A stretch of DNA of 45,917 nucleotides from an uncultured Mollicutes bacterium (GTDB taxonomy: Bacteria; Bacillota_I; Bacilli_A; Acholeplasmatales; Anaeroplasmataceae). Positions within the stretch are counted from its first letter, which is position 1. Each line of letters opens with the position of its first letter. The notes beneath the pieces were generated by a model. It did no database searches. It was not told the DNA's origin and worked only from the letters and a program-made list of their open reading frames with translations. This document shows positions 11,633-32,086 of the stretch, in pieces. The stretch lies in NCBI GenBank assembly GCA_947177025.1, contig CAMWSQ010000001.1:1-45917 (forward strand), written 5' to 3'. The translations under genes were made by a program, and so were the position numbers.

Positions 11633-11657
11633 TATAGGGTGCACTAGGCACCCTATA
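11633..11657 (-). terminator. Hairpin terminator 12 nt after the 43-aa ORF
   Basis: Perfect 10-bp stem TATAGGGTGC / GCACCCTATA with a 5-nt loop. The trailing U-tract on the minus strand is short (TTTCACATT). Confidence 0.55.
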
Positions 11658-11669
11658 AATCTTAATTTT

Positions 11670-11801
11670 TTATTTTCCCCAACGAACTGCGTTAGGACTT
11701 GGAGCAGGAAGGCTTCCTCCTGGAATATCTACACTTACAGAACAAATATCTTCAATTTGTACTTTTTCTTCTTCTAAAATTGGTTTTTCATATTTTTTCA
11801 T
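11670..11801 (-). CDS. Unannotated 43-aa ORF; candidate RRE-recognised (RiPP-type) precursor peptide
   Basis: Hand translation gives MKKYEKPILEEEKVQIEDICSVSVDIPGGSLPAPSPNAVRWGK. An RBS AAGGAGA lies 10 nt upstream of the ATG, immediately after the stop of the 560-aa gene, and a hairpin follows. Residues Y4-x-x-P7-x-L9 match the YxxPxL leader motif of lasso-type precursors. Confidence 0.5.
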   Translation of the reverse strand: MKKYEKPILEEEKVQIEDICSVSVDIPGGSLPAPSPNAVRWGK

Positions 11802-11819: not shown

Positions 11820-13502
11820 TTAAGCTTGAGCTCCAAGAACTGTATAAACTGTAGTGAATCCTTCTACCCACTCACCATTTGCATCTTCTCTTGAATAAGC
11901 TGTAGCAGTTATTTCTTTGCCTACATATTGTTCAGCAAGATTAGCACCATCATTTGATACAGCAACAACAGCTACATAATAGAAAGTATTGTTTTTTACA
12001 CCAAATGTATAAGTTTCACCATTTACTTCAGCTGAATAAATTTCACCTTTAGATGTAAGAGAGTCAGTAAGTGTGAATAATTCTGTAATGTCAAATCCAT
12101 CACCTAAGCCTTCACCAGTTAAAACAACTTTCATATTTTCTTTCATTGAATTCCAATAATCAGCCTTTATATTTTCAACAATGAATACATATCTAACTAA
12201 TTCAGTTCCCTCATCGTTATATCCAGTTGATTGATTAAACATAACACTTGGCTCTGGATCAGCTACAAAGCTAATATGATGAATCCATAAAGAACCCTCA
12301 GTTGAACCGAAATAATAATCACCTGCAGCAGGAATATTAATTTCTGCTAAAGCTGGATTCTCTCCATCAAATTTATCAGTTGTTGAAAGATCTAATTCAT
12401 TAGGACCCAAAACAGAAACAACTACGCTCTTACCACTACTTCCACTTCTTACCCAAAGAGCAAGTTTTCCTGAATTAGAAGCATGTAAAATCATTCCGTT
12501 CTTTGATTCAGATACACTTAATGATCCACCTGTTTTAATTGCGTTTTCTGAAGATCCTAAATCACCACAAGCCTTTGCAGAAGCAGCAAATGATGTACTT
12601 CCACCTAACATTGAATAACTAGTTCCTTCAAGATGAACATTTCCAGTTGCACGTGAACCAAATACAGCAGCGCCCTTATTCATTAAACCAAAGTCAAGTG
12701 TATTTGCATCAGCAATTACACCAGCTGCCCATGGAGTCCACTTAACATATAAATCAGTATTCTCATTAACTACTGCAGATAAACTAGCCTCAGTAGATAA
12801 TTCTGCATCGCTATAAACACCTGCAAAATCATATCCCCATTTTGTAGGAACATATGAAGGAGCTGATCCTTTTGCTACTTCTTCAACTGTTAAAACACTC
12901 TCGCCATCATGGAAAGTTACATTTACTAATTCTGCTGTAGCTTCAAATTCACCTGTAGTTAAAACAATAGAGAAACTAACCATTTTTACTTCTGTATTAG
13001 ATTTTCCTGATGCTTCTTCAAATGCTGTAAATACTAAATAACCATCAGTGATATCGTCTGCAGTAAATGTTACTGAATCGCCACTTACGCTACTTGCTAT
13101 CTTCTTGTTAGCATCTGCATTTAAGTATAGGCATCTAGTAGATTGATTTCCTTGAGCAACTAGAGTTGCTGTTCCTGCAGAACCAGCTGGAACAGGGAAG
13201 GAAATAACTCCACCTGCAACACCAGTAGTCTTAGTATAAACATCTAAGTATCCAGCAGCACCCTTAGTTGCTTTACCACCCATAGCACCAAGAGTAACGC
13301 CTCCAGTTAAGACATCTCCTGTAGCATAATTCTTTGTTGCTGAAGTTGCACTATAATCCCACGTTGCAGTATCATTTGTGTTTGTCGTGGTTGTTACTTT
13401 ATAAGTACCAAATTCTTCTTCAGCAGCACTTACTTTTACCATTGCCACTGTGAATGCAAATAATGCTACAAAGGCAAATAGTAAACCTTTAATTTTTTTC
13501 AT
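11820..13502 (-). CDS. Secreted protein of unknown function with one Flg_new-type repeat
   Basis: Sec signal peptide MKKIKGLLFAFVALFAFTVAMVKVSA/AEE. There is one WGYDFAGVY...DLYVKW repeat and no recognisable catalytic motif or anchor. Confidence 0.8.
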   Translation of the reverse strand: MKKIKGLLFAFVALFAFTVAMVKVSAAEEEFGTYKVTTTTNTNDTATWDYSATSATKNYATGDVLTGGVTLGAMGGKATKGAAGYLDVYTKTTGVAGGVISFPVPAGSAGTATLVAQGNQSTRCLYLNADANKKIASSVSGDSVTFTADDITDGYLVFTAFEEASGKSNTEVKMVSFSIVLTTGEFEATAELVNVTFHDGESVLTVEEVAKGSAPSYVPTKWGYDFAGVYSDAELSTEASLSAVVNENTDLYVKWTPWAAGVIADANTLDFGLMNKGAAVFGSRATGNVHLEGTSYSMLGGSTSFAASAKACGDLGSSENAIKTGGSLSVSESKNGMILHASNSGKLALWVRSGSSGKSVVVSVLGPNELDLSTTDKFDGENPALAEINIPAAGDYYFGSTEGSLWIHHISFVADPEPSVMFNQSTGYNDEGTELVRYVFIVENIKADYWNSMKENMKVVLTGEGLGDGFDITELFTLTDSLTSKGEIYSAEVNGETYTFGVKNNTFYYVAVVAVSNDGANLAEQYVGKEITATAYSREDANGEWVEGFTTVYTVLGAQA

Positions 13503-13570: not shown

Positions 13571-13599
13571 ATTGTACCACCCATATATTTATTTGTCAA
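13571..13599 (-). promoter_or_regulatory. Promoter of the 560-aa gene and small-ORF unit
   Basis: Minus strand reads TTGACA (13599..13594), 17 nt, then TACAAT (13576..13571). Confidence 0.6.
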
Positions 13600-13642: not shown

Positions 13643-13687
13643 AAAACTGTAAAAATATCACCAAAAATGGGAATTTTTTACAGTTTT
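13643..13687 (-). terminator. Terminator closing the five-gene RRE/kinase operon
   Basis: 13-bp AT-rich stem AAAACTGTAAAAA / TTTTTACAGTTTT with a 19-nt loop, followed on the minus strand by a long T-rich run. Confidence 0.5.
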
Positions 13688-13718: not shown

Positions 13719-14813
13719 TTACTTTATTCCTAACTTCTTATAGAGTTCTTTTTCTTCTTCTGAAATCTTATTTTTTTTGGAAAATAACAACCGAAATAGT
13801 TTACCTGTTTGTGTGAATAGCAGATAAAAAATTCGATGGATTAAACACAACGGATAGGTGAACCAATGCTTTCCTAAATGAGGGTATTTGGCAATACGAT
13901 AGCTTTTATCTGTTAAGAATGTTCCTCCTAGAATGGCTTTGAATTTATAGTTTTTCATTCCAAAGCCTTTTTCTTGAATATCATTTTCTTCCCCAAATCC
14001 ATGAATGCCAGATTTTAATAAGTAATCAACAAAGAATTGAATATCTTCTTTTGGAAAATTATCTAACTCTTCTTCAGTCAAAAAATAAATTGTGTTTAAG
14101 ATGTTATAATATAGCTTTGTATATCCAACTTGTCCAATGATGGAGTGAAGCAAATTCAAATCCATATTCCATTTTTTAAGCATATAATAAAAATCTAATA
14201 TATATCTTAAACCTGCACCTCGCACTAAATGATTTGCAAAATGGTGAAGACAAAATACAAAATGATTTTCATTTGTAAATTCATAAAGATATTCTTCCTT
14301 TTTCACTGCAAGAGAAAAAGGTTTCTTGAAATACTCTAATGTTCGGTAGTGATCAAATAAAGAATAATGCACCTCTACTATATGCCCATCTCTTTCAAAT
14401 TCAATATGATGCTGTGCTTCATAGCCTAAAATCTTATATCCACTTTGAAGCATAATCTCTTTTGCCTCATTAAGTTTATCCGTATTTACTAAAACATCAA
14501 TATCTCCACGTGTTCTAAGAGAAGAATCGGGATATAGTTCGTGAAGAACACTTCCTTTGAAATACAAATGTTTGATTTCTGCCGCATTCAGCTTTTCGGT
14601 AAGCTCCTTTTGCATACGAATAAATGATTCCTGCATGATAGATGCCGAAATATAAAAGGGTCTGTATTCTTTTTTTTGATATACAATATATAAAAATGGT
14701 GTTAGAGCTTGTTCCTTTGCTTTAGAAATAATTTCGGATTCTAAAGTAGGATCCATTTCTAAAGTTTCTTCTTTAAAATATGCCTTTAGCATATCTATAA
14801 TCGGATGCTGCAT
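13719..14813 (-). CDS. Nucleotidyltransferase of the NTP_transf_5 (PF14907-like) type
   Basis: The motif HLYFKGSVLHELYPDSSLRTRGDIDVLV matches the hG[GS]...DxD pol-beta-type NTase core as it appears in the family that co-occurs with PqqD and HprK-like genes. The start lies 1 nt after the ABC gene stop. Confidence 0.7.
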   Translation of the reverse strand: MQHPIIDMLKAYFKEETLEMDPTLESEIISKAKEQALTPFLYIVYQKKEYRPFYISASIMQESFIRMQKELTEKLNAAEIKHLYFKGSVLHELYPDSSLRTRGDIDVLVNTDKLNEAKEIMLQSGYKILGYEAQHHIEFERDGHIVEVHYSLFDHYRTLEYFKKPFSLAVKKEEYLYEFTNENHFVFCLHHFANHLVRGAGLRYILDFYYMLKKWNMDLNLLHSIIGQVGYTKLYYNILNTIYFLTEEELDNFPKEDIQFFVDYLLKSGIHGFGEENDIQEKGFGMKNYKFKAILGGTFLTDKSYRIAKYPHLGKHWFTYPLCLIHRIFYLLFTQTGKLFRLLFSKKNKISEEEKELYKKLGIK

Positions 14814-14814
14814 A

Positions 14815-16398
14815 CTACACCCCCTTAAATGGAATGACTCTTTGACGTTCCATTTCCTTACTTCTATGAGAAATGAAAATAATTGTCTTATCTAGCTTCT
14901 GTAATCTTTCCATAATTTCTTCTTCATTCTTTTGGTCTAATGCACTAGAAAACTCATCCAACAACAGTACTGGACGATCCCGTAATAACGCAATTGCTAT
15001 CCAAATACGTTGAATCTGCCCTAAGGATAATCCGCCACCTCGTTCTTTTAACACTGTATCTAGACCATCTTGCATTTCTAATAACTCATCATAAATGTTC
15101 GTAAGCCTTAAAGCTTCTATTGCTTCTTCCTTCGTTTTACCTGTTAGAATATAAATATTTTCAGCAATTGTTCCGCTAAATAAAATGTTTTCCTGTGGTA
15201 CATAGCTAAACAAGGATGGAGATATAGGATACTTCTCTCCTTTATATTTAAGATAAATTTCTCCTTCATCTGGCTTTAAAAAACCCATCATCAGCATAAA
15301 CACTGTGGTTTTTCCAATTCCTGATGGTCCCTGAAATAAAACAATCTCATTCTTTTTAATTTCAAAGGAAAAATCCTTGATTACAGGCTGCTCCTTATAT
15401 GCAAAGGAAACATGTTCAAATACAATAGAATCAAAATCCTCTACTTCTTCTGTTTCTTCTAGCTTTTCTAATTGATATACATGATTGACTCTTTTCTTAG
15501 AAGCCATTGCTAAATTATGCTGATTCCAAAGAGATGAAAAAGATAATAATGGATTTTGAATATTACTAAGTAACTGAACTAATGCAATCATACTACCATA
15601 GGTTAATGCTTGAATGCTAATGGTATATGCACCATAGCATAAAGTGAATAAATAAATGATATTGCTAAAACCAAATAATCCACTATTTGCCATAAACAAA
15701 ATACGATTTCGTTTTCTCTTTGTTTCAATTTGGTTTTCATTTAATCCATCGAAATGGTGGTTTGAAAATTCTGCTGCATCATAGGCTTGGATTAGCTTCA
15801 TTTGTGCAATGGATTCAATAATATACCCATTAAATTTTCCTTCACTTTCTAAAACTCTGTGATGATGTGGACGAATCCATTTTGAATATAGTTTGGCAAA
15901 AATAAGACCCAAAATACCACAGGCAAGAATTAAGATAAGGAAACGATAATCAATGTAAATCACAATTCCAATTGCTATAATCAATCTTGCTGCCTGTCTA
16001 ATAAAATTAGGAATTGTATCCAATTCATACCGTATTAAATTTTGAATATCCGCTGTAAACAACTGTTCAATTTCAGCAGTATGATAGGTTGCAACCTCTG
16101 CGTACTTGCTTTCAAATATACGATAAAATAAAGCTTCCTTTATTTCTTTTTCTCGTTTTATAGAAAAGTGATAATAACACGCATTTTCAATAAGATATAA
16201 AATAATATCCATAAAAATAGCAATAGAAACCCATAAGATATTCCAAAATAATGGCTTCAAATCAGGATTGGTTGTTTTAGATGCCTCTACCGCAAAATCT
16301 ACTAGCCTACTTGTAAGAATAGGAACTGCCAATAAAAAGCATGAATAAAAGAAAGCAATGACAGATAAGATGGCACTATATTTTTTATTTAATTTCAT
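14815..16398 (-). CDS. ABC exporter, fused permease and ATPase
   Basis: Six-TM N-terminal half. Walker A GPSGIGKTT, signature LSLGQIQR, Walker B LLLDEFSSALD. The likely start is ATG at 16398 (MKLNKKYS), forming an ATGA overlap with the peptidase stop; the supplied track starts at 16413. Confidence 0.9.
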   Translation of the reverse strand: MKLNKKYSAILSVIAFFYSCFLLAVPILTSRLVDFAVEASKTTNPDLKPLFWNILWVSIAIFMDIILYLIENACYYHFSIKREKEIKEALFYRIFESKYAEVATYHTAEIEQLFTADIQNLIRYELDTIPNFIRQAARLIIAIGIVIYIDYRFLILILACGILGLIFAKLYSKWIRPHHHRVLESEGKFNGYIIESIAQMKLIQAYDAAEFSNHHFDGLNENQIETKRKRNRILFMANSGLFGFSNIIYLFTLCYGAYTISIQALTYGSMIALVQLLSNIQNPLLSFSSLWNQHNLAMASKKRVNHVYQLEKLEETEEVEDFDSIVFEHVSFAYKEQPVIKDFSFEIKKNEIVLFQGPSGIGKTTVFMLMMGFLKPDEGEIYLKYKGEKYPISPSLFSYVPQENILFSGTIAENIYILTGKTKEEAIEALRLTNIYDELLEMQDGLDTVLKERGGGLSLGQIQRIWIAIALLRDRPVLLLDEFSSALDQKNEEEIMERLQKLDKTIIFISHRSKEMERQRVIPFKGV

Positions 16399-16811
16399 AG
16401 TAATTTCCCACAAAATCTTCGAAATAATTTAAAGCGCACAAAAAAACGATATGTACGATACCTTATTCCCTTTAAAAGATATTGCTTATCCTTTCCTTGT
16501 TTTTTATATGCAATGACTTTGCCAATCAGTTGAGCTCCCTCTATATTTGGCTCTTCTATAGTCTGATGATCTCCTACAAAGGTGTATGTATTATCCTTGA
16601 TTCTTCTTACTCGATGCAAAACAAATTGACCATTTTGTCTGCGATATAATAAGATATCTCCTATACGAATAGAAACAATTTTGGATAATTCCACAACATC
16701 ATTTGAATGAAGCATAGGCTGCATACTTGTCCCCTGTACTGGAAATGTAAAGGTCTGATTGTTTTCAAATGCCTCTAAAATCAAAGGATAAAAATCCTCC
16801 ACTCTAATCAT
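16395..16811 (-). CDS. Small soluble S24/S26-family peptidase with a Sec11/SipW-like Ser/His arrangement
   Basis: GTSMQPML matches the GxSMxP nucleophile box, FVLHRV matches the vHRv box and FVGDHQ resembles the GDN box. There is no N-terminal TM segment. The start is ATG at 16811 or GTG at 16823, and both overlap the PqqD stop. Confidence 0.65.
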   Translation of the reverse strand: MIRVEDFYPLILEAFENNQTFTFPVQGTSMQPMLHSNDVVELSKIVSIRIGDILLYRRQNGQFVLHRVRRIKDNTYTFVGDHQTIEEPNIEGAQLIGKVIAYKKQGKDKQYLLKGIRYRTYRFFVRFKLFRRFCGKLL

Positions 16812-17070
16812 TATACATGCCACGTTTCTTTAATTCTTCAATAAATTCTAGGATATCATTTAAAACAACATCATAAGCAACATCATATTCTGTAACCATA
16901 GCCTTAGCTATTTCTGAAGAAGTCTTATTATTCTTAAGTTGCTCATAAATATATGCTCCTGTTTCAGAAACATTATACACCTTACTAAAATCTACTCCAC
17001 CATCCAAAAGAGGAATAATCATATATTCTTTTCCTACGTGCTTTAAAATAAAATTTTCATTTAAAGGCAT
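16804..17070 (-). CDS. PqqD-family RiPP recognition element (RRE) protein
   Basis: 88 aa, with the pattern ...YNVSETGAYIYEQLKNNKTSSEIAKAMVTEYDVAYDVVLNDILEFIEELKKRGM, typical of stand-alone PqqD peptide chaperones. The start overlaps the kinase stop by 10 nt. Confidence 0.8.
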   Translation of the reverse strand: MPLNENFILKHVGKEYMIIPLLDGGVDFSKVYNVSETGAYIYEQLKNNKTSSEIAKAMVTEYDVAYDVVLNDILEFIEELKKRGMYND

Positions 17071-17879
17071 AAATCCATCTCCAATCTTGTTTTTAATGTA
17101 GTAACAGCATCAGGATTCATATTGCACCCATATGAATAAATTGGTAGTTCTAAAATTTGATCAACCATTTTATTCCATACATCAACTGAATTCTTTTTGG
17201 GTGGTTCAATTTGTCCTAATAACAATCGCATTGCTTCTCTCACTCCAACTTTAGAAACTTGATTTTCTTTTTCTTGTTTTAAAAAGACAATGCATGTTAA
17301 TGGAGCTGTAATATTTTGGTGAATTTGATGCTTTCCACTCCAAGGATTAGAGTAAAGCATCAATTGACCATCTTCTAAAACAATAATATTTTTATCATCA
17401 TTTAATGAAACTGCATCTGTATAGGTTCTCCAAAGTCTAGCATGCGTACTTTTTCCTGTGCCACTCTTTGCACTAAATAAAATACCTTTAGAATGATAAA
17501 CAACGGAAGCGCCATGAATAAATATTGCATTTTGTTTTTGATTTAAAATATATAATAAAGCATATTGACTCAATAAATATTCTGTAACAAAATCCTTTTG
17601 AATCAAATATAAATCTATTCTTTTTTTGTTATATACAATTCCACCAATAATTCGATCATTACTTTTTTGAAGCTGGATTGTTTTATCATCTATTTCGTAT
17701 ATATCATAGAATTCTGTATGGCGTGTTGGTTCTCCTGTAGGCAAACTAAGCTCTTCAAAATGACTGTGAATCTCATATTCTCCAATCTCATTTGTCTGAT
17801 AGGTTTCAATATTATGAAATTGTTCCTCAAATTTAAAATCAATGTTGATATTAATATGAGCAATTTGAATCGTTAACAT
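17061..17879 (-). CDS. HprK-related (HPr kinase C-terminal domain-like) kinase
   Basis: IHGASVVYHSKGILFSAKSGTGKSTHARLW contains the HprK-type P-loop. This resembles the kinases found in paeninodin-type lasso clusters. Confidence 0.7.
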   Translation of the reverse strand: MLTIQIAHININIDFKFEEQFHNIETYQTNEIGEYEIHSHFEELSLPTGEPTRHTEFYDIYEIDDKTIQLQKSNDRIIGGIVYNKKRIDLYLIQKDFVTEYLLSQYALLYILNQKQNAIFIHGASVVYHSKGILFSAKSGTGKSTHARLWRTYTDAVSLNDDKNIIVLEDGQLMLYSNPWSGKHQIHQNITAPLTCIVFLKQEKENQVSKVGVREAMRLLLGQIEPPKKNSVDVWNKMVDQILELPIYSYGCNMNPDAVTTLKTRLEMDLCL

Positions 17880-17899: not shown

Positions 17900-17928
17900 A
17901 TTATACATTGTTTTTAGAATTTAATCAA
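17900..17928 (-). promoter_or_regulatory. Promoter of the five-gene operon
   Basis: Minus strand reads TTGATT (17928..17923), 17 nt, then TATAAT (17905..17900), about 20 nt upstream of the kinase ATG. Confidence 0.6.
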
Positions 17929-18048: not shown

Positions 18049-18086
18049 AAATACAGCAAAAGAAAGGGACTAGCTGTAGCCAGTCC
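18049..18086 (-). terminator. Terminator after the Fic gene
   Basis: Stem GGACTGGC / GCTAGTCC (7 of 8 bp) with a TACA loop, followed by CTTTCTTTTGCTG on the minus strand. Confidence 0.6.
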
Positions 18087-18125: not shown

Positions 18126-19361
18126 TTAGTTTAATTCATACTTAATCATGTTTTCATTTAAAATGAAGATTTTTTCTTTTCTAGAATTCAATTTGGATGT
18201 TAATATCTTTAAGTTCAAAAAGTTATTTAATATTTTAAGTGCGCCTTGTTTAGTAATATTCAGATTACAAAATTCTATGAAGCCTTTATAATTGAACCAA
18301 CCTTTTTTCTTATTTACTATTATTCTTTTTAAATAATGTGCTTCAGTACTAGTAATAGATTCTCCACTCAATGCCAAAGTTTCTCGAATCGCTGTAACAT
18401 TTTTATAAATTAAGTAATATTGATTAGAAAGCTTACATAAATATATCAAAAAATATGTTAAATCATTATGAGAATTTCTGGTATCATCTATTGCTTTATA
18501 ATAATTATTTTTATCATCATTAATTGCTTCACTAATATAGGCGGGTAATATTGCAACTTTTTCCATTAATATACTAATCCATAACGAAACCATTCTAGCA
18601 GTTCTACCATTAAAATCCATATAAGGATGAATATATAAAATATAATAATGAGCGATAAATGGTAATAACATAAACTGCATTGGGTTATCATTTAAATGAT
18701 TATTTACATAATCAAATAAGGAGTTCATACATTCATCAATTTTATCAACATCGCAACCATCATGCCCACCGATTACAACCATTGCTTCTCTATAGTATCC
18801 TTTTAATTCATCTTCTTTTTTTAAAGAATTATAGCTTAAAAGTTTATATAACTTCAATAAATTTTCCTTATCAAACTTTGGTTTGGAAGAAATGAATTTA
18901 TACCCCTGAAACATATTAAAAATAATTTGTTCGTTGGTATCTTTTACTTTTTCAGACTCCATTATTTCTAATATCTTTTTTCTGGTAGTATTAACACCTT
19001 CTATTTCTAAACTACCCTCCAATTCAGAAGAAAGTCTCGACAATATCATTTCATTATAGTTTTCTGATACTATTGTACTATTCTTAATTTGTAAATCATT
19101 TAAAAAGAAATCAGTATAATCTCTTACTGAATATAATAATTCTAACGCTTGATAATAAAATATTTTTTTAGAATTAAATGACTTCAAGGGCAAATCACAT
19201 TTATACTCTGACAAATAATCCTCTTTAAATCTCAAATACTCATTTAACTCTGAATTGGTTAAAAGAAAATCATATTTCTTATTCATTCTTATATCTTCGT
19301 TAGTATAATAATGATTGCCACCTAATGCTGAAAGAATAATATCTTCGTATTTTGAACCCAT
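18126..19361 (-). CDS. Fic/DOC-family protein
   Basis: Fic motif HPYMDFNGRTAR and an N-terminal inhibitory-type motif SLEIEG ([ST]xxxE[GN]). The promoter at 19384..19412 places the start at ATG 19361 (MGSKYED) or 19373, not at the track start of 19442. Confidence 0.85.
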   Translation of the reverse strand: MGSKYEDIILSALGGNHYYTNEDIRMNKKYDFLLTNSELNEYLRFKEDYLSEYKCDLPLKSFNSKKIFYYQALELLYSVRDYTDFFLNDLQIKNSTIVSENYNEMILSRLSSELEGSLEIEGVNTTRKKILEIMESEKVKDTNEQIIFNMFQGYKFISSKPKFDKENLLKLYKLLSYNSLKKEDELKGYYREAMVVIGGHDGCDVDKIDECMNSLFDYVNNHLNDNPMQFMLLPFIAHYYILYIHPYMDFNGRTARMVSLWISILMEKVAILPAYISEAINDDKNNYYKAIDDTRNSHNDLTYFLIYLCKLSNQYYLIYKNVTAIRETLALSGESITSTEAHYLKRIIVNKKKGWFNYKGFIEFCNLNITKQGALKILNNFLNLKILTSKLNSRKEKIFILNENMIKYELN

Positions 19362-19383
19362 ACTATCATCCATCCTTTGATTC

Positions 19384-19412
19384 ATTATAAACCTAATCGT
19401 AAACCTTGTCAA
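19384..19412 (-). promoter_or_regulatory. Fic promoter with flanking GGTTTACGAT direct repeats
   Basis: Minus strand reads TTGACA (19412..19407), 17 nt, then TATAAT (19389..19384). GGTTTACGAT occurs once inside the spacer (forward atcgtaaacc 19394..19403) and once upstream (19431..19440). Confidence 0.65.
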
Positions 19413-19460
19413 GGAATTGTTGTAAACTTTATCGTAAACCAATTATAACCTGCAAAATTA

Positions 19461-21483: not shown

Positions 21484-22770
21484 TTATTTTACTGGAATGA
21501 GTTTCTTCTTGCCGCCCATATAAGGCTGTAATGCCTTAGGTACATTTACGCTGCCGTCTGCATTATAATTATTTTCTAATACTGCAATTAACCCACGAGG
21601 TGTAGCAAGTACAGTGTTATTTAAAGTATGAACTAAATAAGTTCCGTTATCATTCTTTGTACGAATACCAAGACGTCTTGCTTGGGCATCACCTAATGTA
21701 GAACAAGATCCAACCTCGAAATATTTTTGCTGTCTTGGACTCCAAGCCTCAACATCACAGGATTTTACCTTTAAATCTGCCAAATCTCCTGTACAGCATT
21801 CTAATGTACGAACAGGAACATCTAGACTTCTAAAGAATTCAACAGTATAGCTCCACATTTTGTGATACCATTCCATACTTTCTTCTGGCTTACATAAAAC
21901 AATCATTTCTTGTTTTTCAAATTGATGCACACGATAGATTCCTCTTTCCTCAATACCATGAGCTCCAACCTCTTTTCTAAAGCATGGAGAATAGGAAGTT
22001 AAAGTAATAGGCAATTCTGCTTCCTTAACAATTTGACCTTTAAAACGACCAATCATAGAATGCTCTGATGTACCAATCAAATATAAGTCTTCTCCTTCAA
22101 TTTTGTACATCATATTTTCCATTTCAGCAAAGCTCATTACACCCTTTACAACATCAGAACGAATCATAAATGGGGGAATACAATATGTGAATCCTTTATC
22201 AATCATAAAATCTCTAGCATAGCTTAGCATTGCAGAATGAAGTCTAGCAATATCTCCAACAAGATAATAAAATCCATTTCCACTGGTTCTGCCTGATGCA
22301 TCCTTATCTAATCCATTAAATCTAGAAATGATATCTGCATGATAAGGAATCTCATAGTCAGGAACTACAGGATCTCCAAATTTTTCAATTTCAACATTTT
22401 CAGAATCATCTTTTCCAACAGGAACACTAGAATCTACAATTTGAGGTATGACTAACATAATCTCATTTAATTTGCCTTGTAGTTCCTCCAATAATGGATC
22501 GATTTCAGCAATTCTTTTATTATTGTTAGAAACTGTTTCCTTAATGGCATTCGCCTTATCTATTTCCTTATTTTTCATAAGAAAACCAATTTGCTTACTA
22601 AGTTCATTTCTAGAAGCTCTTAAGGTTTCTCCTTCTAGCTTTAAGCTACGAATTTGCTTGTCCAATGCAATGACTTCATCTACAAGCGGAAGCTTTGCCT
22701 CTTGAAATTTCTTTTTAATGTTCTCCTTTACAAGCTCTGGATTTTCTCTAATAAATTTAATATCTAACAT
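21484..22770 (-). CDS. serS: Seryl-tRNA synthetase
   Basis: MLDIKFIRENPELVKENIKKK coiled-coil arm plus class II core motifs (FRKE, TLNNT/GSGLA-type region). 428 aa. Confidence 0.95.
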   Translation of the reverse strand: MLDIKFIRENPELVKENIKKKFQEAKLPLVDEVIALDKQIRSLKLEGETLRASRNELSKQIGFLMKNKEIDKANAIKETVSNNNKRIAEIDPLLEELQGKLNEIMLVIPQIVDSSVPVGKDDSENVEIEKFGDPVVPDYEIPYHADIISRFNGLDKDASGRTSGNGFYYLVGDIARLHSAMLSYARDFMIDKGFTYCIPPFMIRSDVVKGVMSFAEMENMMYKIEGEDLYLIGTSEHSMIGRFKGQIVKEAELPITLTSYSPCFRKEVGAHGIEERGIYRVHQFEKQEMIVLCKPEESMEWYHKMWSYTVEFFRSLDVPVRTLECCTGDLADLKVKSCDVEAWSPRQQKYFEVGSCSTLGDAQARRLGIRTKNDNGTYLVHTLNNTVLATPRGLIAVLENNYNADGSVNVPKALQPYMGGKKKLIPVK

Positions 22771-23009
22771 ATTCCTTCTCCTTTTTTCTTTAAAAATAAA
22801 AATCCTTAAGTTAAAAATAACCTAAGGACGATTGTTCACCGTGGTGCCACCTTAATTCTAGTATAACACTAGCACTTAAATTCTTTAACGCAGAAATACG
22901 ATTCTTATCCAAGGTAGATTCGCTTTATAATCGGTTAACTAGTTTTCACCCAACACTAGCTCTCTTATATAACCTAATCATAACCTACTTGTCCTCTTCA
23001 TCTAAGATT
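22771..23009 (-). promoter_or_regulatory. T-box riboswitch leader of serS; serine specifier UCU proposed
   Basis: The minus strand contains the AGAGA box, GGTGAAA, and the T-box sequence AATTAAGGTGGCACCACGG (22839..22858). A terminator TCCTTAGG...CTTAAGGA plus TTTTTATTTTT follows. GAA-UCU-A at 22916..22918 fits a Ser specifier followed by a purine. Confidence 0.85.
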
Positions 23010-23015
23010 AATGCA

Positions 23016-25113: not shown

Positions 25114-27801
25114 ATGACTAGAAATGAATTTGACATTCTACATTATATTTATAAAAACGGCAAAAAAAGCTATAGAGATATCAGCAAAGCAACAGAGGTA
25201 TCCATTGGAACTGTTTCTAAGGTGATGAAACAACTTTTAGAAAAACAATATATATTCAATGATGAAATCACTTCATTAGGTATGCAGGCATTAGAAGCCT
25301 ATCGTGTTCATAATGCAATCATTTTAGCAGCAGGTCCCTCCTCAAGATTTGTACCCTTATCCCTAGAACAGCCAAAGGGATTGTTCAAGGTAAGAGGAGA
25401 GATATTGATTGAAAGACAAATCCAGCAGCTTCAAGATGCCGGAATTGAGAATATCTATCTTGTTTTAGGATATAAAAAGGAAGCCTTCTTCTATTTGAAG
25501 GATAAATATAATGTTCATTTTATTATCAATACAGAATACAACAAAAAGAATAACATTGAATCCTTATACATTGCAAAGGACAAGCTAGGATCAAGCTATA
25601 TTTGTTCTTCCGATGATTATTTCACCATAAATCCATTTCAAAAATATGAATATCAAACCTTCTATGCATCTATCTATACTCCTCAAAAAACAAAGGAAAT
25701 GTATGTGGATGTAAATACGAAAGATGAAATTATAGTTATGGCAAAGGGGAGACCCTCAGGAAATATTTTATTAGGTCACTCTTATTGGAATGAGAATTTT
25801 TCTAAAGCCTTTACTTCTCTTATGGAAAAATATCATGATACTGGAGAATATGATAGTGCCTTTTGGGAAAAGCTTGTTGCAGACCATTTATCCGTTCTTC
25901 CTAAAATGGAAATCAAAAGATATCCAGAGGATACAATTTTTGAATTTGATTTTGTTGAAGAACTACGCGCCTTTGATAACAAATACGTCAATCACACCGA
26001 AAGTAAAATCATGGCAAACATTTGTTTGGCTCTAAAATGTAATGAAGCAGATATTTTTAATTTCAAGCCTGTGTATGAAGGTCTTACAAATACTTCCTTC
26101 ATCTTTACAGTTAAAAATATTCAATATGTGTATCGTCAGCCTGGAGAAGGAACTGGAGCGGTTATTAATCGGAAGCATGAAAAAATAGCATTAGAAGTCG
26201 CAAAGGAAAATCATTTTGATCCAACCTTCCTTTATATGGATGAAAACGAAGGATGGAAAATATCCTATTATATTCCTTCTTTCAGAGAACCAGATTATGC
26301 AAATCCAGAAGATTCTAAGATTGTAATTCAAACCTTGCAACGACTTCATAAAATTCAAGTCAAAGAAATTGATTGGACATTTGAGCCTGTTACTGAAGCA
26401 CTGAAGCTAGAAACTGCTTTGAAAGAAAAAACAACAATTGCAATGTCTGACTTTGATGAATTAAAGGAACGCATTTTAAAGCTATATGAAAAGACAAAGG
26501 GAGACGGAATTGAAAAATGCTTCTGTCATGGAGATACATACAAGCACAATTGGATGATTACTCCTACTTCTACTATACTCATTGATTGGGAATACGCAGG
26601 TTTAGGTGATCCAGGTATTGACGTTGGATATTATATTGTAGACGCAATGTATTCCTTTGAAGAGGCAGACCAATTTATTCGCGCTTATTGTAAAGACACA
26701 TATTCTGATGCATTACGCTTCCATTATCTTGCTTACACAGCTATTATTGCCTATTATTGGTTTGTTTGGGCGCTCTATAGAGAATCCTTTGGAGCTATCA
26801 TAGGAGAATCTCTTTACAATTGGTATACTATGGCAAAAACATATTCCTTATATTTAGAAAAGGAATATGCAATTCAAAGTAAACTATTAAATCGCTACGA
26901 ATTTGAAGTATTAAAATACATTGAAGAAAATTCAAACGTCCCTTATGATTCACGATCCATCTCAAATAGTCTTCTTTTCTCATGGGACAAGGTCAAAGGA
27001 ATTCTAGCAGAGGGTTTAGAAAAAGGAATCCTTAAAAACAATTCTTCTACTCTCTCTATTACCGAAAAAGGAAAAGCCCTATTAGAACCCTATCAGGTTG
27101 AACGTGCTGTCATTATGGCAGCAGGCTTTGGTTCAAGAATGGTGCCAATTACTCTAGAACGACCAAAGCCATTAGTTAAAGTCAATGGAATCAGAATCAT
27201 TGACACTCTATTAGACGCTTTAATTTCAAAAGGAATCAAGGAAATCTATATTGTTACAGGATATAAAAAAGAAATGTTTGGTGAGCTTTTAGAAAAATAT
27301 CCATTCCTTCAATTGATTGAAAATGACGATTATAACATTACCAATAACATTTCTTCTATTATGAAGGCATTGCCTCACATAGACAATTGTTATATCTGTG
27401 AAGCAGATTTCTTAGTATCTAATCCAAACATTATCTCAAAATATCATTATTGCTCAAATTATTTGGGAGCCTATGTACGCGAAACAGATGATTGGTGTTT
27501 TAGAAGTGAAAATCAATATGCAGTGGATTATAAAAAAGAAAATACCAACTGCTATCAAGCCTTTGGTATTTCTTATTGGAATGCAGAGGATTCCAAAAAG
27601 CTAAGAAGCTATCTTCCTCAAATCTATAAAACAAAAAAAGGAAAACAAGAATTTTGGGAATCCTGTATTTTCAATTATTATAAGAATGATTTCAAAGTGG
27701 AAATTAATATCTGTTCTAAATTCGATATTGTAGAAATTGATAATTTTAGTGAACTCGTAGAAATTGATCCATCCTATAAATCCTACACAAATAAACAATA
27801 A
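25114..27801 (+). CDS. Triple fusion of wHTH-LicC-like nucleotidyltransferase, LicA-like choline/aminoalcohol kinase, and a second wHTH-LicC-like nucleotidyltransferase
   Basis: aa 1-60 form an HTH, then ILAAGPSSRF...PKGLF. The kinase part carries CHGDTYKHNWM (Brenner motif) and LIDWEYAGLGDPGIDVGYY (choline-kinase motif). A second HTH is followed by IMAAGFGSRMVPITLERPKPLVKVNG. Confidence 0.85.
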   Translation: MTRNEFDILHYIYKNGKKSYRDISKATEVSIGTVSKVMKQLLEKQYIFNDEITSLGMQALEAYRVHNAIILAAGPSSRFVPLSLEQPKGLFKVRGEILIERQIQQLQDAGIENIYLVLGYKKEAFFYLKDKYNVHFIINTEYNKKNNIESLYIAKDKLGSSYICSSDDYFTINPFQKYEYQTFYASIYTPQKTKEMYVDVNTKDEIIVMAKGRPSGNILLGHSYWNENFSKAFTSLMEKYHDTGEYDSAFWEKLVADHLSVLPKMEIKRYPEDTIFEFDFVEELRAFDNKYVNHTESKIMANICLALKCNEADIFNFKPVYEGLTNTSFIFTVKNIQYVYRQPGEGTGAVINRKHEKIALEVAKENHFDPTFLYMDENEGWKISYYIPSFREPDYANPEDSKIVIQTLQRLHKIQVKEIDWTFEPVTEALKLETALKEKTTIAMSDFDELKERILKLYEKTKGDGIEKCFCHGDTYKHNWMITPTSTILIDWEYAGLGDPGIDVGYYIVDAMYSFEEADQFIRAYCKDTYSDALRFHYLAYTAIIAYYWFVWALYRESFGAIIGESLYNWYTMAKTYSLYLEKEYAIQSKLLNRYEFEVLKYIEENSNVPYDSRSISNSLLFSWDKVKGILAEGLEKGILKNNSSTLSITEKGKALLEPYQVERAVIMAAGFGSRMVPITLERPKPLVKVNGIRIIDTLLDALISKGIKEIYIVTGYKKEMFGELLEKYPFLQLIENDDYNITNNISSIMKALPHIDNCYICEADFLVSNPNIISKYHYCSNYLGAYVRETDDWCFRSENQYAVDYKKENTNCYQAFGISYWNAEDSKKLRSYLPQIYKTKKGKQEFWESCIFNYYKNDFKVEINICSKFDIVEIDNFSELVEIDPSYKSYTNKQ

Positions 27802-28743: not shown

Positions 28744-31314
28744 TTAAAATTTGTCATGATCCTTATAGTCTTTATAAGAATCATCTAAAGCAACCAATTC
28801 ACTGAAGTTATCAATTTCAACAATGTCTGGTTTATAGCATTCACGAATTGTAATCTTGAAATCCTTCTTATATACTTTTAAAGGTGCGTTGTCCCAGAAA
28901 TTTTCTTTTCCTGCTCGAGAATGATATAGCTTCTTTATATCTTCACTAAGCTTTTTACCATCTGCTTCATTCCAGTAAGAAATACCTATCATTTGATAAC
29001 AATTCTCTCCACCTTGCTGATAGTGATCAATATAAATTCCCTTTTTAAATAAACACCAGTCTTCTGTCTCACTTACTTTAATTCCTAAATAATTTGTATT
29101 ATATTGATACTTTTGAATAAGATCCTTATTTTTAACTAAAAGATCTGCCTCACAAATATAACAACGTTCCATATAGTCTAAAGCCTTCATTGCAGAAGAA
29201 ATATTGTTTGTTACATTATATTCCTCATTATCTACAAACTTTACAAAAGGATATTTTTCTAACAGCTGATCGAATTGTTCCTTCTTATATCCACGAACAA
29301 TTAATACATTAGTTATACCTTTTTCCACAAGTGCATCTAATAGAGTATCAATGATTCTTGTTCCATTGACCTTTACCAAAGGCTTAGGAATATCCAAAGT
29401 TACAGGAGCCATTCTAGAGCCAAAACCTGCAGCTAAAATAATAGCTTTACGTACACGATATGGTTCTAACACCAACAAGCCCTTTTCTGTAATACTCATA
29501 TCTCCTTTTACATCAACCTGAACATATCCAAGCTCTGTACAGAAATTCAATTCACGATTGATTGTTCCTAAAGAAATGGTTAGCATATCTGATAACTCTC
29601 TTTGAGTATATTTCCCTTTTCCATGCTTTTCTAAAAATGTTAATATTGAAAATTGATACTTATTTAATTCCATAAATTCTATTCCTTTTCTTCTTTCTTT
29701 TCTTGTTACAAAAATATAAGTTAAAATTGCAGTACATCCTTTAAATACTAAATTGATTAAAATGATAATAAAAGAAACAACTGCTTGCATCTCATAGTTT
29801 CCTGTTCTCTCATAAGTAGTAATAAGCACTGCCAAAGGCTGTGTCTTATATGTGCTTAGGAACGCAACTGCAGAAATGGTAATCATAGAATTCAAAAAGA
29901 AATATGAAAACATTTCAATTATCGTTCCTATAGAGGAAGGAATTAGCACCTTGAAAAACACTCTAAATCGATTCAGTCCTAAAGTGTTTCCTACAATTTC
30001 ATAATCCTTATTGATTTTAGACAAACAATTCTTTGCCATAATAAACGGTGAGCCCAAGAAATGCGCAACATTTACTGCAACAATGATAGCAACGGTTCCA
30101 TAAAAGAACCCGTTGGTTCCTTGGAATATAAATATATATCCAATACCTAAAACAATTCCTGGAATTGCAATAGAGGCCATCGCCAAGAAATTTAATATTT
30201 TTCCAAGAATTCCTTCTTCTATACGAGACGTAAAATATGCTGCAGTATAAGCAAAAGCTGTACCAACAACTCCTGTTGCAATTGCAATTAAAATCGAGTT
30301 GCTAATATATTTTCCTAACCCAACACCATGAACTGCATCAAATACATTGGCAAGATTCTTCATTGAAAATTGAATGTTGTTTGGATACCCCTTCATAAAC
30401 GCTAACGAAACAAAGGACGCCTGTGGGATAAGCAAAAAGAAAACAACCAAAGAAATAAAAACAATTGTAATGATATTGAATGCTTTTGATGCTGGAAGCA
30501 AAGCATTTTTACTCTCTCCTCCGTTGTCCTCCTTTAAGAAAATATCTAAAATAAAGGAAACAACCGCAGGAATTAAAAGTATTAAACCAACTAATGCTGC
30601 TCGTCCATATTTAAAATTTGTCATTGCCTGTTCATAAAGATACATAGGTAATGTCTTAATTCTACCTGCAACCTCCATTGGTATACCATAATCTGAAAAG
30701 ATTAAAGTAAAACTTGCGAGGAAGGCTATAATTAAAGGTTTAAATAAATATGGAAGTGTGATTTTAAAGAAGGTACTAAACTTTCGTATTCCTAAAATAT
30801 TTGCAGCATCATATGATTCCTTATTCTCATAGCGTAATGCATCATAGAGAACCAAAAAGGTTGGCGGAAAGCTTACAACAATGGAGCCTAGAATTAAACC
30901 TGAATATCCCAACAAATCTTTATTAAAGCCAAACATTTGGTCAAAAAAACCATTAGTTCCAGAACATACACGTATACCAAGTCCAATGGATAGCGTTGGA
31001 ACTAGCATAGGTATAGTTAAAAGAATATTAAAGATTTTTTTATGTTTCAAAGTGGAAAAATTTAAAAAGTAAGCAGTCACCAATGCTAATATTGTGGTAA
31101 GTAAACTACTCACAAGAGTGTAAACAAATGAATTCTTGACAGCCTCATGAAAACCAGGATCCTGAAATACATAGGAAGTGTCTGCTCCTACTATATTAAA
31201 CAACAAAAAGAATAAGGGAAGTATACAAAATAGGAGAATACATCCCATATAAATGCATCGTGTTATATTATAGGATTTTATCGTAATTCTTTTACTTCTT
31301 ATCGTGAATTCCAT
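28744..31314 (-). CDS. 12-TM ABC importer permease (Fbp/PhnUV/Pot class) fused in frame to a wHTH-LicC-like nucleotidyltransferase
   Basis: Permease body to about aa 552. The sequence then reads ...RKGIEF-MELNKYQFSILTFLEKHG (HTH) and ILAAGFGSRMAPVTLDIPKPLVKVNG. There is no stop at the junction (ATG at 29673). The C-terminal module is a clear paralog of the C-terminal module of 25114..27801. The start is uncertain (31314 or 31329). Confidence 0.85.
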   Translation of the reverse strand: MEFTIRSKRITIKSYNITRCIYMGCILLFCILPLFFLLFNIVGADTSYVFQDPGFHEAVKNSFVYTLVSSLLTTILALVTAYFLNFSTLKHKKIFNILLTIPMLVPTLSIGLGIRVCSGTNGFFDQMFGFNKDLLGYSGLILGSIVVSFPPTFLVLYDALRYENKESYDAANILGIRKFSTFFKITLPYLFKPLIIAFLASFTLIFSDYGIPMEVAGRIKTLPMYLYEQAMTNFKYGRAALVGLILLIPAVVSFILDIFLKEDNGGESKNALLPASKAFNIITIVFISLVVFFLLIPQASFVSLAFMKGYPNNIQFSMKNLANVFDAVHGVGLGKYISNSILIAIATGVVGTAFAYTAAYFTSRIEEGILGKILNFLAMASIAIPGIVLGIGYIFIFQGTNGFFYGTVAIIVAVNVAHFLGSPFIMAKNCLSKINKDYEIVGNTLGLNRFRVFFKVLIPSSIGTIIEMFSYFFLNSMITISAVAFLSTYKTQPLAVLITTYERTGNYEMQAVVSFIIILINLVFKGCTAILTYIFVTRKERRKGIEFMELNKYQFSILTFLEKHGKGKYTQRELSDMLTISLGTINRELNFCTELGYVQVDVKGDMSITEKGLLVLEPYRVRKAIILAAGFGSRMAPVTLDIPKPLVKVNGTRIIDTLLDALVEKGITNVLIVRGYKKEQFDQLLEKYPFVKFVDNEEYNVTNNISSAMKALDYMERCYICEADLLVKNKDLIQKYQYNTNYLGIKVSETEDWCLFKKGIYIDHYQQGGENCYQMIGISYWNEADGKKLSEDIKKLYHSRAGKENFWDNAPLKVYKKDFKITIRECYKPDIVEIDNFSELVALDDSYKDYKDHDKF

Positions 31315-32086
31315 GGATACTATCCTCAATTGATTTTATTTTTTCATCCAATTGCTCAACGATAAAGCTTTGAATGAATGGAGAAGCTGGATTATGATAA
31401 ATATTAGATGGTGTATCCAATTGAACAATATGATTATCATCAATTACCATAATACGATCAGATAAGCTAAAAGCTTCCTCTTGATCATGTGTAACATAAA
31501 TCATAGTTATTCCATACTTTTCTTGTATCTTCTTTAATTCCTTACGTAATGCCAGCTTAATATTCGCATCTAACGCAGACATCGGTTCATCAAACAAAAT
31601 AATGTCTGGATTTAAAACCAATGTACGAGCAATAGCAACTCTCTGCTGTTGTCCACCTGATAATTGTCTTGGCTTTTTATGGACATGCTCCTGTAGTCCT
31701 ACAATTTCAATAATTTCATTTACACGATTTTCGATTTCTTCTTTTGAGACCTTTTTAACCTTTAAAGCATAGGCAATATTATCATACACCGTCATATTCG
31801 GAAACAAAGCATAATTTTGGAATACAATTCCCATGTTTCTTTCTCTTGGTGTTTTATGCGTAATATCTTCACCCTGCTTAAAGATTGTTCCATATGTAGG
31901 TTCTTCTATGCCAATTAAAATACGTAGAAGTGTTGTTTTTCCACATCCTGAGGAACCCAAAAGGGAGAGAAACTCTCCCTTATATACTTGGAAATAAATG
32001 TTTTCTAAAACGATTCTATTTCCATATTTTTTTCCTATGTTTTCGATAGTTAAAATTGCTTCTTTTTCCATAATTATAGTTTCCAT
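31292..32086 (-). CDS. ABC transporter ATP-binding protein (PotA/FbpC-like)
   Basis: Walker A GSSGCGKTT, signature LSGGQQQR, Walker B ILFDEPMSALD. An alternative start exists at 32071. Confidence 0.9.
   Translation of the reverse strand: METIIMEKEAILTIENIGKKYGNRIVLENIYFQVYKGEFLSLLGSSGCGKTTLLRILIGIEEPTYGTIFKQGEDITHKTPRERNMGIVFQNYALFPNMTVYDNIAYALKVKKVSKEEIENRVNEIIEIVGLQEHVHKKPRQLSGGQQQRVAIARTLVLNPDIILFDEPMSALDANIKLALRKELKKIQEKYGITMIYVTHDQEEAFSLSDRIMVIDDNHIVQLDTPSNIYHNPASPFIQSFIVEQLDEKIKSIEDSIHGIHDKK

Follow-up and report, generated by a model that had tools for sequence, protein, structure and literature searches.

In lasso and other pathways for peptides that are made by ribosomes and modified after translation (RiPPs), recognition proteins bind the leader of the precursor peptide. 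Lasso-tailoring kinases phosphorylate a conserved C-terminal Ser of the precursor, and a His-Lys-Asp-Asp motif is essential in the members PadeK and ThcoK (PMC9266682). In the pseudomycoidin pathway, the kinase PsmK carries a D158/D159 pair, and PsmN, the one NTP_transf_5 protein that has been studied, is needed for the addition of a hexose, not of a nucleotide, to the phosphate; its D134A/D136A mutant is inactive (PMC6993621). The SynChlorMet (SCM) system (TIGR04249/TIGR04248) consists of ScmC, the PqqD-like protein ScmD and two radical S-adenosylmethionine (SAM)/SPASM proteins. The locus described here is a five-gene cassette on the minus strand (17879-13719) of contig CAMWSQ010000001.1 (GenBank assembly GCA_947177025.1) from an uncultured Mollicutes bacterium of the family Anaeroplasmataceae; the window is the whole stretch of 45,917 nucleotides (nt) that was analysed. 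The cassette encodes a ScmC-family kinase-like protein, a stand-alone PqqD-type protein, a Peptidase_S24 protein, an ATP-binding cassette (ABC) exporter and an NTP_transf_5 protein. With a probability of about 0.6, it is the maturation and export machinery of a so far undescribed family of leader-guided ribosomal peptides, whose substrate at this locus would be a peptide of 43 amino acids (aa).

The candidate precursor gene lies ~2 kb downstream of the cassette and 18 nt past the stop codon of a gene for a secreted protein of 560 aa; it has a ribosome-binding site (AAAGGAGA) 8 nt from its ATG (Table 1). The proposed split yields the leader MKKYEKPILEEEKVQIEDICSVS and the core VDIPGGSLPAPSPNAVRWGK, with Val at both -2 and +1 of the proposed cleavage site and Lys at the C-terminus of the core. 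Homologous small open reading frames (ORFs) hold the same position in related contigs. Compared with L001 and L010 (labels of this form denote loci related to the window that were compared here), the leader shows synonymous codon changes with the amino acids kept. An earlier, sequence-only reading of this DNA had described the five-gene unit and raised the idea of a conserved small ORF travelling with it. The unit is real and such an ORF exists, with a leader/core architecture typical of RiPPs; it lies outside the coordinates given for the unit, and the link to the secreted protein had been missed.

A profile search of 5.8 billion proteins returned at least 1,590 sequence clusters of the precursor family. 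The clusters listed carry neither a Pfam domain nor a more telling source name than "hypothetical protein", and NCBIfam contains no model for the family. The leader consensus is MKxYxxPxhEhhxhxxxDhhxxS, in which Y4, D18 and S23 are near-invariant. Among 148 distinct precursors, Ser is found at -1 in 147, Thr at -2 in 108, Thr or Ala at -3 in 140, and Gly at +1 in 96 (65%). The cores are hypervariable, 6-25 aa in length (median 13, many of 6-10), rich in Gly, Asp, Glu and Pro, and carry a mean charge of -2.9. A conserved leader followed by a variable core reads as a RiPP precursor signature, and a T/A-x-S site with small residues at -3 and -1 fits cleavage of the signal-peptidase type. A peptide proposed as an example of what the family is expected to yield is IDNPELPFVPVSGK.

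Precursors and cassettes are coupled in the genomes. The genome scan covered one genome per GTDB species, and the 80 genome loci taken from it are the matches most similar to the window; the metagenome sample is precursor-centred, from human gut, and redundant. Gene calls in these loci come from a crude ORF method, the seeds of the hidden Markov models (HMMs) were the proteins of the window itself, and truncated contigs are frequent. In both Acholeplasmatales and Clostridia, precursors are detected by the leader HMM beside cassettes; in many cases they immediately precede the kinase gene, and tandem arrays, with as many as six members, occur in some cases. A precursor was detected beside the cassette in 31 of 94 sources. 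Among loci fetched by the precursor, 19 of 80 also hold the kinase gene, mostly ~1 kb downstream, and in many of the remainder the contig ends too early for the gene to be seen. The array of six, which codes for short acidic cores, immediately precedes the kinase gene in L044 (2284-3223); this locus also has a divergent ORF that resembles a response regulator by sequence and, unusually, no large secreted-protein gene upstream.

The tight coupling of the five cassette genes, including all four junctions described in the sequence-only reading, was confirmed base by base. The stop codon of the ScmC gene overlaps the start of the PqqD gene by 10 nt (17061-17070), the PqqD stop and the peptidase ATG (16811) overlap by 8 nt, the peptidase stop and the exporter ATG (16398) form an ATGA overlap, and a single nucleotide separates the exporter stop (14815) from the NTP_transf_5 ATG (14813). 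The peptidase comprises 138 aa from ATG 16811 or 142 aa from the alternative GTG 16823. The hairpin previously placed downstream of the cassette is real: it folds with -19.3 kcal/mol (z = -6.6), none of 200 shuffles folds as well, and a U-run follows. The sequence proposed as the cassette promoter is likewise present; its function as a promoter is only plausible, since this AT-rich DNA holds no excess of promoter-like sites as a class (29 against an expectation of 34). Upstream, a Fic-domain gene is closed by its own GC-rich terminator (18067-18086), which makes the cassette a unit of its own.

The kinase-like protein has no match in the local Pfam copy, and its precomputed annotation is PF27840 (ScmC). 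Its best NCBIfam match is ScmC (TIGR04249), with 22.2 bits against a cut-off of 125, and weak matches to HprK_rel_A/B occur as well. The ScmC profile matches PDB sequences only marginally (HprK, E 0.3), so that structure prediction was needed for the assignment. An AlphaFold model based on an alignment of 79 homologues has a predicted local distance difference test score (pLDDT) of 94.8, and its top Foldseek matches in the PDB are HPr kinase/phosphorylase (HprK/P) structures (1knx, 1kkl, 1jb1, 3tqf; E 6e-7 to 6e-5). The target-normalised TM-score of the catalytic domain reaches 0.58, and phosphoenolpyruvate carboxykinases (PEPCK) rank after HprK/P. The protein is thus predicted to have the HprK/P fold, and the earlier HprK-like assignment holds. 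H122, K143, D161 and D162 are invariant in the 79 homologues; judged by position and order, not by direct alignment with PadeK, they appear to correspond to the PadeK/ThcoK motif and to the D158/D159 pair of PsmK.

For the next gene product, the PqqD assignment rests on PF05402 (1.5e-13); the best NCBIfam match, lasso_PqqD_Bac, scores 37.6 bits, under its cut-off of 80. The exporter contains ABC_membrane (1.6e-31) and ABC_tran (2.4e-23) domains, and no C39 peptidase domain was found in it by Pfam. Another leader peptidase is therefore needed, and the S24 protein is the natural candidate. The NTP_transf_5 protein matches PF14907 with 2.8e-32 (112.7 bits, cut-off 31.2) and has no match among PDB sequences. 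Its K86-G87, R100 and D104-x-D106 are near-invariant in 30 homologues (D104 in 29, D106 in all 30). The Pfam scores thus uphold the assignments of these three proteins in the sequence-only reading.

The peptidase passes the Peptidase_S24 cut-off (PF00717, 2.5e-9, 37.3 bits against 23.3) and its gene adjoins that of PqqD in 55 of 90 loci, in keeping with the earlier suggestion that a peptidase of 138-142 aa occupies the position expected of a leader protease. It matches the archaeal-type signal peptidase I model TIGR02228 with 1.9e-9 and 37.6 bits (cut-off 51.85, missed), the SipW model NF046067 with 14.5 bits (cut-off 190) and PDB sequences marginally (signal peptidase I, E 0.05). In 52 homologues, G31, S33, M34, P36, H70, R71, G84 and D85 are invariant; they make up the GxSMxP box (GTSMQP here, with S33), the HR box (H70-R71) and the GD box (G84-D85). 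The 142-aa sequence shows no hydrophobic stretch of the transmembrane kind, and the C-terminus is basic and amphipathic. The protein is predicted to be a Sec11/SipW-type Ser-His enzyme without a membrane anchor, presumably cytoplasmic or peripheral.

SipW is the signal peptidase for TasA and TapA. By analogy, the cassette peptidase could be a dedicated signal peptidase for the large secreted proteins encoded nearby, the small ORFs not being its substrates. Its closest curated models are indeed archaeal-type signal peptidase I and SipW, and large signal-peptide proteins are consistently co-encoded. However, it lacks a transmembrane segment by which its active site could come to lie beyond the membrane, PqqD and the peptidase are encoded by overlapping genes, and in the precursors the spacing between the leader motifs and the conserved T/A-x-S site is fixed. 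All this makes the explanation very improbable.

The leader-guided pathway is proposed to run as follows. The precursor gene would be co-transcribed with the gene of the 560-aa secreted carbohydrate-binding-like protein. PqqD would bind the N-terminal YxxPxhEh part of the leader, and the ScmC-type kinase would act on the bound precursor, most likely by phosphorylating a hydroxyl group; phosphorylation is held with considerably less confidence than the pathway as a whole. The only near-universal candidate acceptors would be the T/A-T/A-S residues at the end of the leader. Where present, the NTP_transf_5 protein may decorate the phosphate, by analogy with PsmN in pseudomycoidin. The soluble peptidase would then cut after the invariant Ser23, and the ABC half-transporter would export an acidic, Gly/Pro-rich peptide of 6-25 aa, here a 20-mer. 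Outside the cell, the peptide would probably be a short ligand motif whose counterpart is the secreted protein encoded with it. The model is supported by the operon structure, the folds, the conserved catalytic residues and a family of peptides with leaders that is coupled to the cassette in the genomes.

The kinase-like protein has relatives in at least 599 species genomes, among the 600 pattern matches listed. The hosts are gut and rumen Bacillota, including the cultured Ruminococcus flavefaciens Y1, Kandleria vitulina DSM 20405 and Anaerostipes butyraticus. Of 90 sources, 68 showed PqqD, 55 the peptidase, 56 the exporter and 32 NTP_transf_5, which is truncated in some of them. The gene order ScmC-PqqD-S24-ABC(-NTP5) is usually kept across Acholeplasmatales, Lachnospiraceae, Oscillospiraceae and Ruminococcus. 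The sequence-only reading had noted that the window has no cyclase, B2 protease or other core enzyme. Pfam scans of every large ORF agree: no Asn-synthase-like, transglutaminase, radical-SAM, YcaO, LanM or ATP-grasp protein was found in the window. Outside it, neither a lasso cyclase nor a B2 protease nor another core enzyme of peptide modification recurs in ~170 related loci, and each neighbourhood examined lacks both the lasso cyclase and the B2 protease, so the cassette does recur without a cyclase. No Asn-synthase-like protein appears in the Pfam-annotated neighbourhoods, no family of cyclase size recurs in 90 loci, and Transglut_core3 is missing from the Pfam lists of all neighbourhoods. 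The surroundings of the cassette yielded no additional enzyme family that recurs in this subtype.

These data bear on the view that the cassette is a decayed, non-functional lasso cluster of the paeninodin type that has lost its cyclase and B2 protease. An HprK-like kinase, PqqD, NTP_transf_5 and an ABC exporter form the accessory set of Firmicute lasso clusters, and the leader has a YxxPxh start, often with Gly at +1. From the lasso precursor pattern (Thr at -2, Gly at +1, Asp/Glu at 7-9), the first two residues are present in the 108 and 96 of the 148 precursors given above, and many cores are shorter than 9 aa; cores of 6-10 aa are too short for a lasso. Against decay, the cyclase-less architecture is kept in hundreds of species with catalytic residues intact, and a different peptidase is consistently found at the protease position. 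Decay is rejected because no Asn-synthase-like family recurs or appears in the annotated neighbourhoods; the SGGxDS PP-loop motif was found in only two unrelated ORFs (359 and 384 aa) across 93 loci. Such an origin is scarcely credible.

A minority subtype carries a radical SAM gene just after a Cys-rich precursor gene (L053, 10370-11770; L075, 10903-12249; L082, 10902-12245). The assignment is confirmed by Pfam in L053; the ORFs of L075 and L082 belong to the same family by clustering and have the CxxxCxxC motif. This subtype links the family to sactipeptide/ranthipeptide-like and SCM-type systems. Leaders without the Ser are found in L035, L059, L068 and L087. Given the radical SAM subtype and the Ser-less leaders, the ScmC-PqqD-S24-ABC set behaves as a reusable chassis. 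In L090 (14078-14896) and L091 (10868-11686), of a Lachnospiraceae-like lineage, the NTP_transf_5 gene overlaps at its end with one for a SAM-dependent methyltransferase, which may provide an extra tailoring step.

In the window, in diverse genome loci and in the metagenome sample, a large protein with a signal peptide is almost always encoded 7-90 nt upstream of the precursor gene. In the metagenome sample, 60 of 73 non-edge precursors follow proteins of at least 250 aa, most of them of ~1,000-1,300 aa. Besides the pair in the window, examples are found in L005 (5594-8045), L063 (5074-9751), L101, L125, L144 and L168. Read-through of the stop codon or an in-frame extension into the precursor was rejected, the spacers of 7-90 nt being in mixed frames. 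The upstream proteins are diverse, with LRR_5, InlB B-repeat, Big_2, transglutaminase-like and pullulanase-X25-like domains, and no shared receptor domain was found, their C-terminal domains falling into at least 3-4 unrelated groups with no single family. The C-terminal class of the upstream protein nonetheless tracks the class of the core: class A occurs with PFVP-type cores in 22 of 22 cases and class B with LPxMG-type cores in 10 of 12, counts that come from a human-gut sample of related sequences and are not independent events. This suggests that secreted proteins and peptides form cognate pairs. Just upstream of several such pairs in human-gut loci, a gene for a protein of ~220 aa is found (L101, 5693-6367; L125, 5836-6486; L144, 5938-6603; L090, 2393-3079). 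The L090 copy, which was scanned, has a weak TetR_N match in Pfam, and the protein possibly regulates the module.

The 560-aa protein of the window contains several beta-sandwich domains resembling carbohydrate-binding modules and an InlB B-repeat. Its model has a pLDDT of 84.9, and the best domain match is a putative pectate lyase carbohydrate-binding domain (8wc1, 8x8h; TM 0.81-0.82). It has 18 homologues, and every one with a named organism is from Anaeroplasmataceae. The site preceding the pair, TTGACA-17-TGnTACAAT, is the strongest promoter match in the region.

Related loci additionally encode, beside the precursor, small tether proteins, which consist of a lipoprotein or N-terminal anchor, a long linker that is acidic or rich in Pro, Thr and Ser, and a C-terminal copy of the core (Table 1). 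Within a locus, the three best core/tail scores (86, 75 and 58) are higher than those of any of the 40 mismatched pairings (48 at most) or the 1,400 shuffles (39 at most); the score of 37 for L041 lies inside the control range. A tether gene was searched for in the window with the small WGPL-tailed lipoprotein of L001/L005 as a guide, and none was found; the closest relatives of the window show only a weak W-G likeness between core and tether.

Table 1 Features of the cassette and of the secreted-protein/precursor pair in the window, and tether genes of related loci. Positions of tether genes refer to the locus named
Feature	Position	Strand	Remarks
ScmC-family HprK-fold (predicted) P-loop kinase-like protein, 272 aa	17061..17879	-	N-terminal beta domain and C-terminal HprK/PEPCK-like domain
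PqqD-type leader-recognition protein (RiPP recognition element, RRE), stand-alone, 88 aa	16804..17070	-	PF05402
Soluble Sec11/SipW/archaeal-type Ser-His(-Asp) peptidase (predicted), proposed leader peptidase	16395..16823	-	PF00717
ABC exporter half-transporter, 527 aa from ATG 16398	14815..16413	-	ABC_membrane and ABC_tran, without C39 domain
NTP_transf_5 nucleotidyltransferase-fold protein, 364 aa	13719..14813	-	PF14907, the Pfam family of PsmN
Candidate sigma-70-type promoter of the cassette, TTGATT-17-TATAAT	17900..17928	-	10/12 positions match
AT-rich hairpin with U-run, probable terminator or attenuator of the cassette	13643..13687	-	Folding
Promoter-like site before the secreted-protein/precursor pair, TTGACA-17-TG-TACAAT	13571..13599	-	11/12 match, extended -10 TG
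Secreted protein, 560 aa, putative cognate partner upstream of the precursor gene	11820..13502	-	Signal peptide MKKIKGLLFAFVALFAFTVAMVKVSA
Precursor peptide gene, 43 aa, MKKYEKPILEEEKVQIEDICSVSVDIPGGSLPAPSPNAVRWGK	11670..11801	-	Leader HMM E 7.6e-14
GC-rich hairpin terminator of the secreted-protein/precursor unit	11633..11657	.	10-bp stem, 5 GC pairs
Tether gene, L041	9188-9694		Precursor core GELPFVPAE; tether tail ...IELPFVPAF
Tether gene, L093	1878-2501		Precursor core ...EMPDDGLEWSPLVPVK; tether tail ...ELPDDGLDWSPLVPVN
Tether gene, L022	5380-5919		Precursor core DSFHIIEEGPIKLPFIPADQS; tether tail ...DDDFHIVTEAPIELPFIPAG
Tether gene, L067	3231-3479		Precursor core NLDEDELPWVPANE; tether tail ...EEDELPWIPA
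Tether gene, L101	10166-10846		
Tether gene, L125	13795-14406		
Tether gene, L144	12968-13618		
Tether gene, L168	5942-6547		

The simplest, though speculative, reading takes the core for a short ligand motif that occurs free as well as tethered and has its match in the secreted protein encoded alongside. A more specific proposal, tentative and with the odds against it, is that the exported peptides are not antibiotics but free copies of a short C-terminal docking motif (for example ELPFVPA, LPPMGI, or W-G in the lineage of the window) that a co-encoded lipoprotein or N-terminally anchored protein also displays, at the tip of a long disordered tether. Each large secreted protein, whose gene directly precedes that of its own precursor, would bind the matching motif, and the system would control the non-covalent anchoring or release of surface glycan-binding proteins and enzymes in gut Bacillota. 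The kinase and NTP_transf_5 might then tune the ligand or attach it to an envelope polymer. If true, this would be a new mode of surface-protein retention driven by a RiPP-like pathway.

Several observations weigh against a leader-guided pathway that modifies the peptide. All NCBIfam matches of the cassette proteins score under the curated cut-offs. In roughly two thirds of the cassette loci, no precursor can be recognised within 10 kb; for these, a non-peptide or distant substrate may apply. NTP_transf_5 is absent from the complete cassettes of L003, L009, L011 and L012. The leader HMM matches published rumen lasso leaders over about the first 14 residues only (E 0.25-0.4); because this is not significant, the likeness to Firmicute lasso leaders would be a resemblance, not homology. 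Ser, which at the C-terminus is the acceptor of the lasso kinases, terminates no more than 6 of the 148 cores, and 54 contain neither Ser nor Thr nor Tyr, so that the target of the kinase may not be the peptide. The ScmC relatives with radical-SAM genes or Ser-less leaders argue for a generic rather than a core-specific role of this protein.

Part of this evidence agrees with a cassette that only processes and exports a linear, unmodified product, similar to a class II bacteriocin or a pheromone. ScmC would then be an ATPase or scaffold for PqqD-guided cleavage and NTP_transf_5 optional. The cores have no conserved modifiable residue, the chassis occurs with or without radical-SAM or NTP_transf_5 genes, and the tethered core copies are ordinary Sec or lipoprotein substrates that cannot be leader-modified. 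This explanation is nevertheless considered unlikely: the His-Lys-Asp-Asp set is invariant in the ScmC homologues, the DxD of NTP_transf_5 is near-invariant, and Ser at -1 is kept more strictly than the "small residue" rule of signal peptidases.

The capsule-type neighbourhoods raise another option, in which the enzymes mainly modify the envelope, for instance by a phospho-glycosyl group on a capsule, a teichoic-acid-like polymer or a lipid carrier, and the peptide is secondary or polymer-attached. About 9 of 90 cassette loci adjoin CpsB/Wzz genes and have no local precursor, a further point against a peptide substrate. CpsB, Wzz and CpsD-like genes are found beside the cassette in L088 (6263-12983), L073 (3086-9902), L023 (5247-11969) and L026 (9626-15556), with no precursor within 10 kb. 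By sequence, the ORF that immediately precedes the cassette in R. flavefaciens Y1 (L080) resembles a glycosyltransferase; PsmN is required for hexose on phosphate (PMC6993621), and the window itself contains a glycan/phosphocholine locus from ~25 kb. On the other side, the cassette is in tight linkage with a PqqD protein and with a family of leader-bearing peptides, the capsule link is confined to the ~9 of 90 loci, and the glycan locus of the window is >7 kb away, with unrelated Fic, MscS and serS genes in between. A primary role in the envelope is thus distinctly improbable. A consistent link to non-peptide functions had been named in the sequence-only reading as a finding that would speak against it; the position of the cassette beside capsule-type CpsB/Wzz genes in ~9 of the 90 loci bears this out in part.

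Other features of the window surround the cassette. The Fic-domain gene directly upstream (18126-19442, minus strand; PF02661, 2.6e-10) is absent from the homologous loci and appears unrelated to the cassette. A T-box leader (22821-23010, minus strand; Rfam RF00230, 114.7 bits) precedes the seryl-tRNA synthetase gene (21484-22770) and is ordinary. The right-hand part of the window is a surface-glycan/phosphocholine locus. It encodes two unusual fusion proteins, one of 895 aa (25114-27801, plus strand) with winged-helix, APH-type kinase and nucleotidyltransferase domains and one of 861 aa (28744-31329, minus strand) with ABC permease (BPD_transp_1), winged-helix and nucleotidyltransferase domains, as well as two LicD proteins (33218-34045 and 35181-35975).

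If the leader-guided pathway is real, it would represent a class of ribosomal peptides that is very common in the gut bacteria of humans and animals and has had no name to date. It would do without the known class-defining enzymes and would employ a signal-peptidase-like enzyme as a cytoplasmic leader protease. Genome mining keyed to core enzymes would miss such clusters or call them incomplete lasso clusters. The system makes the roles of HprK-like kinases and PF14907 proteins outside lasso clusters testable, along with the role of ScmC. The same holds for the one-to-one tie of peptides to secreted carbohydrate-binding or adhesin-like proteins and for the membrane-tethered mirror tails.

Among known systems, the paeninodin and pseudomycoidin lasso clusters (PadeK/PsmK, B1 PqqD, PsmN, ABC exporter) share with the cassette the HprK-fold kinase with its His-Lys-Asp-Asp set, the stand-alone PqqD, the PF14907 protein and the ABC exporter, as well as a leader start MKxYxxPxhE and a frequent Gly at +1. 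Unlike these clusters, the cassette has no Asn-synthetase-like cyclase and no transglutaminase-like B2 protease, with a Sec11/SipW-type peptidase instead. The precursors have no conserved C-terminal Ser acceptor, their cores of 6-25 aa are in many cases too short for a lasso, and their genes sit behind secreted-protein genes. SynChlorMet shares the ScmC family and a PqqD homologue. It differs in its taxa and in its radical SAM proteins, which are absent from the window and most loci; the ScmC match stays at 22.2 bits against 125, and the cassette adds the S24 peptidase, the ABC exporter and NTP_transf_5. The endoplasmic-reticulum-type signal peptidases (Sec11, archaeal signal peptidase I, Bacillus subtilis SipW) have the same GxSMxP, HR and GD boxes and cleave at sites with small residues at -3 and -1. 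The cassette enzyme, in contrast, has no membrane anchor, would act on a RiPP-type leader substrate and is encoded by a gene translationally coupled to that of PqqD. The HPr-rel-A system (TIGR04352/TIGR04353), judged from model names only, combines HprK-related kinase A with a PqqD-family chaperone and has no cyclase. Here the scores are 17.7-20.4 bits against a cut-off of 200, and 12.8 against 35 for PqqD_rel_X; to our knowledge, no peptidase or exporter is associated with HPr-rel-A. The cassette differs from each of these known systems in at least one of the defining features tested. No description of its architecture or of the precursor family was found in the literature or among curated models, in agreement with the sequence-only reading, which was not aware of such an architecture being characterised. 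The system is therefore judged to be an uncharacterised variant of leader-guided ribosomal peptide pathways.

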